The notes under the pieces: model-generated
What the model saw: the letters and a program-made list of their open reading frames with translations, nothing else
The model's database searches: none
What the model was told of the DNA's origin: nothing
Assembly: GCF_003334305.1 (NCBI RefSeq)
Contig: NZ_QOWS01000026.1
Reading direction: 5' to 3' (one strand)
Length of the DNA: 64,000 bases
DNA from: Escherichia coli
Lineage (GTDB): Bacteria > Pseudomonadota > Gammaproteobacteria > Enterobacterales > Enterobacteriaceae
Position numbers and translations under genes: made by a program
Shown: positions 51,135-51,245 of the stretch, one piece after another
Position numbering within the stretch: position 1 is the stretch's first letter
Layout of the letters: the number at the start of each line of letters is the position of its first letter

Positions 51135-51245
51135 ATGCTGGAATCAATAATTAATCTGGTATCGAGTGGCGCAGTTGACAGCCACACACCGCAAACTGCC
51201 GTTGCTGCCGTGCTGTGTGCCGCAATGATTGGGCTGTTTAGTTGA
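51135..51245 (+). CDS. yshB: Small protein YshB (36 aa)
   Basis: ATG..TGA read directly: MLESIINLVSSGAVDSHTPQTAVAAVLCAAMIGLFS; below the 60-aa ORF track cutoff. Confidence 0.7.
   Translation: MLESIINLVSSGAVDSHTPQTAVAAVLCAAMIGLFS

Follow-up and report, generated by a model that had tools for sequence, protein, structure and literature searches.

The reading frame at positions 51135-51245 of the stretch of Escherichia coli DNA analysed here (64,000 nt in full length, hereafter the window) is, with practically no room for doubt, yshB, an authentic protein-coding gene of E. coli that had been catalogued before. Our overall explanation, in which a yshB gene is transcribed from its own promoter and yields a conserved membrane peptide, with docking onto a partner as its tentative mode of action, is one that we regard as very likely to be right. 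The gene is already known and partly characterised, and there is nothing new at this position; it is annotated automatically by PGAP, and models for its product exist in both NCBIfam and Pfam, so that its discovery value is small. Its use here is as a positive control, which demonstrates that a 60-aa floor on open reading frames (ORFs) misses real genes and that a cross-species analysis of codon positions recovers small genes such as yshB cleanly.

Small proteins of the inner membrane that regulate larger proteins include MgrB, MgtS, AcrZ and CydX, which act on PhoQ, MgtA, AcrB and cytochrome bd, respectively. yshB has reportedly been listed among the genes of E. coli ever since small proteins were surveyed in 2008, its discovery being credited to Hemm and colleagues in that year.

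Results

Locus and identity of yshB

The frame opens on the plus strand with an ATG at 51135, the earliest start codon past the in-frame stop upstream, and closes after 36 sense codons with a TGA at 51243-51245 (product MLESIINLVSSGAVDSHTPQTAVAAVLCAAMIGLFS; Table 1). It starts 111 nt downstream of glnG, which lies on the same strand and ends at 51023, and hemN is convergent on it, with its end at 51435. The 601 nt spanning yshB match many E. coli chromosomes of RefSeq with 100% identity, and in those records PGAP calls exactly this frame, in the glnG-hemN interval, as 'yshB: YshB family small membrane protein'. The exact peptide is present in the protein collection as UniProt YSHB_ECOLI, the YshB of E. 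coli K-12 (36/36 residues identical), in a cluster that includes Shigella, Salmonella and E. marmotae. The K-12 locus likewise has glnG upstream and hemN convergent, and its coding sequence differs from that of the window by one synonymous change in the last sense codon, AGC versus AGT in the window, so that the window belongs to an E. coli strain other than MG1655. YshB of Salmonella enterica (MLESIINLVSSGAVDSHTPQTALAAVLCAALVGLFS) belongs to the same family and the same 90%-identity cluster, has the same length and the same position after glnG, and differs from the window protein in three residues (V23L, M31L, I32V).

Assignment to the family was equally clear at the level of profiles. Scored with the NCBIfam equivalog model NF033841 'small_YshB', the product reached 72.1 bits (cut-off 34), residues 1-36 aligning to model positions 1-40. 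A Pfam family, PF28018:YshB, is on record for a YshB homologue; our Pfam-A profile scan of the peptide returned no match even at E <= 10, the library copy evidently being older than PF28018. The traits by which NF033841/PF28018 members are recognised were all found in the window product: a score above the family cut-off over the full model, a length within the 35-41 aa range together with the invariant core described below, and the spacing from glnG. A search of protein representatives with the peptide gave 15 matches, all of them YshB relatives or mis-called extensions of such relatives.

The preliminary description of this DNA had named the gene yshB and given it the same coordinates and 36-codon length, and translation, RefSeq annotation, the NCBIfam match and UniProt identity all agree with it. 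The clean ATG-to-TGA frame and the hydrophobic character of the peptide that it reported are likewise confirmed (GRAVY +1.12), as are the flanks that it named, glnG on one side (end at 51023) and a REP cluster on the other (REP pair at 51280-51367). It had also remarked that yshB is absent from the 60-aa ORF track, which is true by construction, 36 aa being below the threshold.

Table 1. Features located at and around yshB in the window
Feature	Position	Strand	Basis
yshB promoter, -35 box TTTACT	51080..51085	+	Promoter scan; CTTTAC columns invariant in all 61 aligned species
yshB promoter, -10 box TATGAT, 16-nt spacer from the -35 box	51102..51107	+	Promoter scan; GTATGAT invariant or nearly so in 61 species
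G+C-rich stretch after the -10 box	51108..51124	+	Alignment and per-species folds; discriminator or small hairpin
Shine-Dalgarno sequence GGGGAG	51122..51127	+	Read from the sequence; 7 nt between GGAG and ATG
yshB coding sequence, 36 codons plus TGA	51135..51245	+	RefSeq annotation, NCBIfam, UniProt identity and cross-species conservation; Ribo-seq, mass spectrometry and RseP cleavage in the literature
REP unit, first of an inverted pair	51280..51313	+	Palindrome; five copies in the window vs 0 expected by chance
REP unit, second of the pair, inverted	51339..51367	-	Three copies in the window vs 0 expected; pairs with the first in the predicted fold
Strong hairpin in the yshB/hemN interval	51389..51427	.	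Fold of 51240-51440, z = -8.1

Conservation of the reading frame across species

The 1.7 kb around yshB is overlapped by 31 ORFs that measure 20 aa or more; a 36-codon ORF is therefore, taken alone, no better than chance, and the case for yshB rests on conservation. Relatives of YshB were sought in one genome per species across 100,044 species, and 62 loci encoding one were found. Within Enterobacteriaceae the carriers belong to Escherichia, Salmonella, Citrobacter, Enterobacter, Kosakonia, Trabulsiella, Pluralibacter, Phytobacter, Franconibacter, Mangrovibacter and Leclercia and include Klebsiella indica, and outside this family they belong to Erwinia, Izhakiella, Pantoea and Brenneria. Conservation of the frame in related species, proposed in the preliminary description as a check on the gene, is borne out in 61 of 61 genomes, one per species, from Enterobacteriaceae and families close to it, in which this is the sole one of the six frames to be open throughout. 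Every complete copy starts with ATG and ends at the residue aligned with S36, the identity of the stop codon differing among copies (TGA, TAA or TAG); the complete copies are 35, 36, 40 or 41 aa long, and the insertions and deletions that separate them are of whole codons only.

The substitutions follow the pattern of a protein-coding sequence. The 61 coding sequences are all distinct as nucleotides, with column entropies of 0.49, 0.24 and 1.17 at the first, second and third codon positions, third positions being about five times more variable than second ones. Nei-Gojobori dN/dS between the window gene and those of other genera ranged from 0.02 to 0.26, and was about 0.02-0.03 for the two Salmonella loci tested. 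Nine positions are invariant among the 39 distinct YshB proteins (M1, H17, P19, Q20, T21, A22, A25, C28 and A29), and the invariant core, H-T-P-Q-T-A..A..C-A, is fully present in the window protein. Position is conserved as well: with few exceptions among 60 loci tested, the spacer between glnG and yshB measures 90-116 nt, typically about 110 nt, and three further loci (L067-L069, described below) agree with this. Judged from these aligned sequences, strong purifying selection acts on the YshB peptide, in Enterobacteriaceae as well as in neighbouring families.

On the opposite strand, the -1 frame over the gene (51135-51242, minus strand) is stop-free in 50 of the 61 species; its openness is most simply a by-product of Ala-rich, G+C-rich codons.

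Promoter and 5' region

yshB has its own conserved sigma-70-type promoter directly past glnG, and in the 61-species alignment the -35 and -10 boxes are better conserved than much of the coding sequence. From the position of these boxes we infer a transcription start at approximately 51114-51116. A G-rich Shine-Dalgarno sequence is found at an equal distance from the ATG in all yshB loci.

The G+C-rich stretch that follows the -10 box contains a possible hairpin, in which CCCG (51112-51115) would pair with CGGG (51121-51124) around a GAAAA loop and which abuts the Shine-Dalgarno sequence. In some lineages both arms change together, in a compensatory manner, to CGCG/CGCG in Franconibacter, TGCG/CGCA in Trabulsiella, CCAG/CTGG in Enterobacter hormaechei (locus L050) and CCGG/CCGG in locus L057. 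Folded species by species, the hairpin gave a mean z-score against shuffles of only -0.49, RNAalifold found no consensus structure between the -10 box and the ATG across species, and a test with chimeras, in which a species' own 5' half was fused to the 3' half from another, yielded -6.6 versus -5.7 kcal/mol overall, a modest difference that is clearer in Franconibacter, Trabulsiella and E. hormaechei. On account of the weak z-score, the lack of an RNAalifold consensus and the modest difference in the chimera test, the hairpin is not claimed here; the stretch may serve as a G+C-rich promoter discriminator or may form a small hairpin, and the predicted transcription start may fall within the 5' arm of the latter.

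A further conserved block occupies positions 51039-51079, between the glnG stop codon and the -35 box of yshB (TGTGTAAAG...GCGCAAATTGC...TATTTTGCGC). An imperfect inverted repeat within it, GCGCAAA / TTTGCGC, directly adjoins the -35 box; the outer pairs of this repeat change without compensation in several genera, and our terminator scan did not call it. One pair of the repeat is broken in the window, where base 51076 is A; most other aligned species have G at this position. The block is a candidate UP element, regulator site or terminator of glnALG.

Region downstream of yshB

Downstream of the gene, an inverted pair of REP units precedes a strong hairpin (Table 1). The REP pair is an insertion in Escherichia, the spacer between yshB and hemN being 189 nt long in the window and in E. 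albertii and much shorter in nearly all other genera examined (about 27-100 nt, for a whole range of about 27 to 189 nt); the first REP unit is missing from this spacer in the other genera examined. The 601-nt query, which includes the REP units, gave a median of 39 matches in each E. coli genome, and it is these units that explain the multiple matches. In E. albertii and E. whittamii the REP pair is present in diverged or partial form, and the spacers of other genera hold different palindromic elements of their own or a short terminator hairpin alone.

A G+C-rich hairpin comparable to that at 51389-51427 occupies the short yshB-hemN spacer in nearly all other genera examined. The hairpin of the window was not called in a simple terminator scan, and it is probably a shared bidirectional terminator of the convergent yshB and hemN genes. 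hemN lies convergent downstream of yshB in most loci. In three loci (L067-L069, 2501-2614), carriers of the 37-aa homologue P0029 (MLESIIHFVTQTAETGAHTPQTAMAAIMCALMLNLFH), yshB follows glnL-glnG and the next gene is not hemN, and in Brenneria (L039) glnG is found upstream of yshB and hemN is not found downstream. The persistent linkage of yshB is, given these loci, to glnG only. In two of the three loci (L067 and L068) the gene downstream of yshB encodes an SBP_bac_5 solute-binding protein.

Published evidence for expression of YshB

Ribosome occupancy, the second check that had been proposed, is likewise positive, Ribo-seq values having been published for K-12 (PMC10746267). Table S8 of that work lists yshB under 'previously known sORFs' and reports how its Ribo-seq and RNA-seq signals change in acid stress; the Ribo-seq log2 fold change at pH 5.8 versus 7.6 is +0.61, and a second sheet gives -1.67. 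The same work places the K-12 gene at 4053647-4053757 on the minus strand of NC_000913.3. The intact protein has been found by top-down mass spectrometry, and it is missing from bottom-up data because it has no tryptic sites (PMC12529367). The intramembrane protease RseP cut tagged YshB in all four assays to which it was subjected, that with purified enzyme included, and YshB counts, in vivo as well as in vitro, among the class I substrates of RseP, these data coming entirely from tagged constructs (PMC10470546).

With respect to abundance, two reviews give a predicted figure of more than 11,000 copies of YshB per cell and credit it to Li et al. 2014; according to one review, His-tagged YshB was undetectable in one study. 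One paper reports that yshB is induced neither together with glnALG nor by nitrogen limitation, and one paper counts the YshB family as part of the core genome in each of E. coli, K. pneumoniae, S. enterica and S. sonnei. Salmonella needs its homologue inside macrophages, where YshB favours intracellular replication and virulence (Bomjan et al. 2019, cited after PMC10470546 and further papers), and the reduced intracellular replication and virulence of the Salmonella mutant is the sole phenotype on record for yshB, with none for E. coli.

Features of the YshB protein

YshB contains no Lys or Arg and two acidic residues, and the positive-inside rule consequently yields no topology for it. Its most hydrophobic core spans only about 15 residues. 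The C-terminal segment is hydrophobic throughout (mean Kyte-Doolittle 2.4 over residues 21-35), and near the N terminus the amphipathic moment is 0.50 (residues 1-11). AlphaFold2, run with the family alignment, returned two helices, 2-13 and 17-35, with a short break between them (mean pLDDT 75). Hydropathy, the modelled helix 17-35, published TMHMM and TOPCONS predictions and cleavage by RseP agree with one another, and YshB is predicted from them to be integral to the inner membrane. In a helical wheel of the C-terminal helix, residues T21, A22, A25, C28 and A29 fall within an arc of 180-300 degrees, with the variable residues opposite.

Discussion

Proposed mode of action

In the scheme that we propose, YshB would begin with a short amphipathic helix (residues 2-13), continue through the invariant H-T-P-Q-T hinge and end in a second helix (approximately 17-35) running through the inner membrane. 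The small-residue face of this second helix (T21, A22, A25, C28, A29) would pack on a transmembrane helix of a larger membrane protein and in so doing alter the activity or the stability of that protein, and intramembrane cleavage by RseP would probably limit the level of YshB. As the conserved small-residue face looks like a helix-helix packing surface, docking onto a larger membrane protein, in the manner of MgrB, MgtS, AcrZ or CydX, is the most likely mode of action; it is put forward tentatively and by analogy, at a little short of even chances.

YshB resembles the partners in the pairs MgrB-PhoQ, MgtS-MgtA, AcrZ-AcrB and CydX-cytochrome bd in size class, in its single predicted helix and in its conserved face. 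Two of these small proteins, MgrB and CydX, were assayed beside YshB as RseP substrates (PMC10470546). None of the four has a sequence relationship to YshB, and the likeness is one of working principle, not demonstrated membership.

A search of PDB sequences with the YshB family profile returned no chain even at E <= 10, from which it follows that none of the solved complexes deposited there includes YshB; the literature reports no YshB binding partner, and the neighbouring genes give no reliable hint of one.

Alternative explanations

A more specific version of the docking scheme would make YshB a dedicated modulator or subunit of one particular membrane protein, for example a transporter or sensor concerned with nitrogen or the envelope, with the stretch at 51108-51124 serving in addition as a regulatory switch. 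The invariant helix face and the unbroken linkage to glnG across several families of Enterobacterales could mean such a dedicated role, and the switch could take the form of a growth-rate-sensitive promoter discriminator or of a hairpin masking the Shine-Dalgarno sequence. We consider this combination unlikely; if true, it would supply a mechanism for a known gene and not a new kind of element.

Far less probable is that YshB, rather than acting as a regulator, is a membrane-perturbing or toxin-like peptide comparable to the type I toxins Hok, Ibs and Ldr. The protein is small, hydrophobic and membrane-spanning by published prediction, and it shares its RseP substrate class with HokB and HokE (PMC10470546), but it has no basic residues, and its gene is single-copy, occupies a fixed place on the chromosome in dozens of genera and is subject to purifying selection. 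No promoter-like site from which an antitoxin RNA might be transcribed was seen on the minus strand between 50800 and 51600 (a weak negative, the scan being crude), and Rfam returned no match at the yshB region. The Salmonella phenotype comes from loss of yshB and not from its presence, and a review that gives the predicted figure of more than 11,000 copies per cell does so with no mention of toxicity; nothing to the effect that overexpressed YshB is toxic is said in that review or in the RseP paper (PMC10470546).

Slightly less credible still is the proposal that the locus is mainly or additionally a regulatory RNA past glnG, analogous to NrsZ past ntrBC in Pseudomonas, with the ORF being secondary. 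One paper indeed equates the position of yshB with that of NrsZ, the transcript is short, and the promoter is conserved beyond much of the coding sequence. The substitutions, however, are of the protein type, with free third positions, dN/dS far below 1 and indels of whole codons; moreover, the intact protein has been detected (PMC12529367), no Rfam family reaches its gathering score in the yshB region, and the gene is not induced by nitrogen limitation. That the frame is a chance intergenic ORF, common as such ORFs are around yshB, has a negligible probability in the face of a frame, ends and Shine-Dalgarno sequence kept in 61 of 61 genomes with a coding pattern of substitution and of the published translation and protein data, and the related idea of a leader peptide for a downstream gene is rejected because hemN is convergent, so that no same-strand gene follows yshB.

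Other observations in the window

A near-identical strain has, as annotated in RefSeq, a single intact CDS of less than 60 aa across approximately 64 kb, namely yshB. The preliminary description had suggested that further small proteins could be hidden elsewhere, including in the gap at 24.0-24.6 kb. This gap (24041-24617, between yiiE and nadS) is unannotated and A+T-rich (35-40% G+C), and the region varies among E. coli strains, a 1-kb query from it being covered to 80% or more in only 2,097 of 5,415 genomes. The eight ORFs within it (24.04-24.62 kb) that measure 30-60 aa gave no match to NCBIfam models. The suggestion is speculative and nothing points to a small protein in the gap, although this is weak evidence, since annotation pipelines under-call small genes.

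At approximately 53625-53791, on the minus strand, PGAP annotates in E. coli strains E2865 and 503025 a pseudogene described as 'hypothetical protein, frameshifted; internal stop'. It falls wholly inside the CsrC sRNA gene found with Rfam (53564-53817, minus strand) and is most likely an annotation artefact. Elsewhere in the window, matches at the Rfam gathering score comprise the REP-derived naRNA4 (8917-8987), the fdoG SECIS element (18063-18121), STnc370 (44576-44644), ES222 (46534-46641), CsrC itself and Spot 42 (54846-54964), all of which are expected for this region of E. coli.
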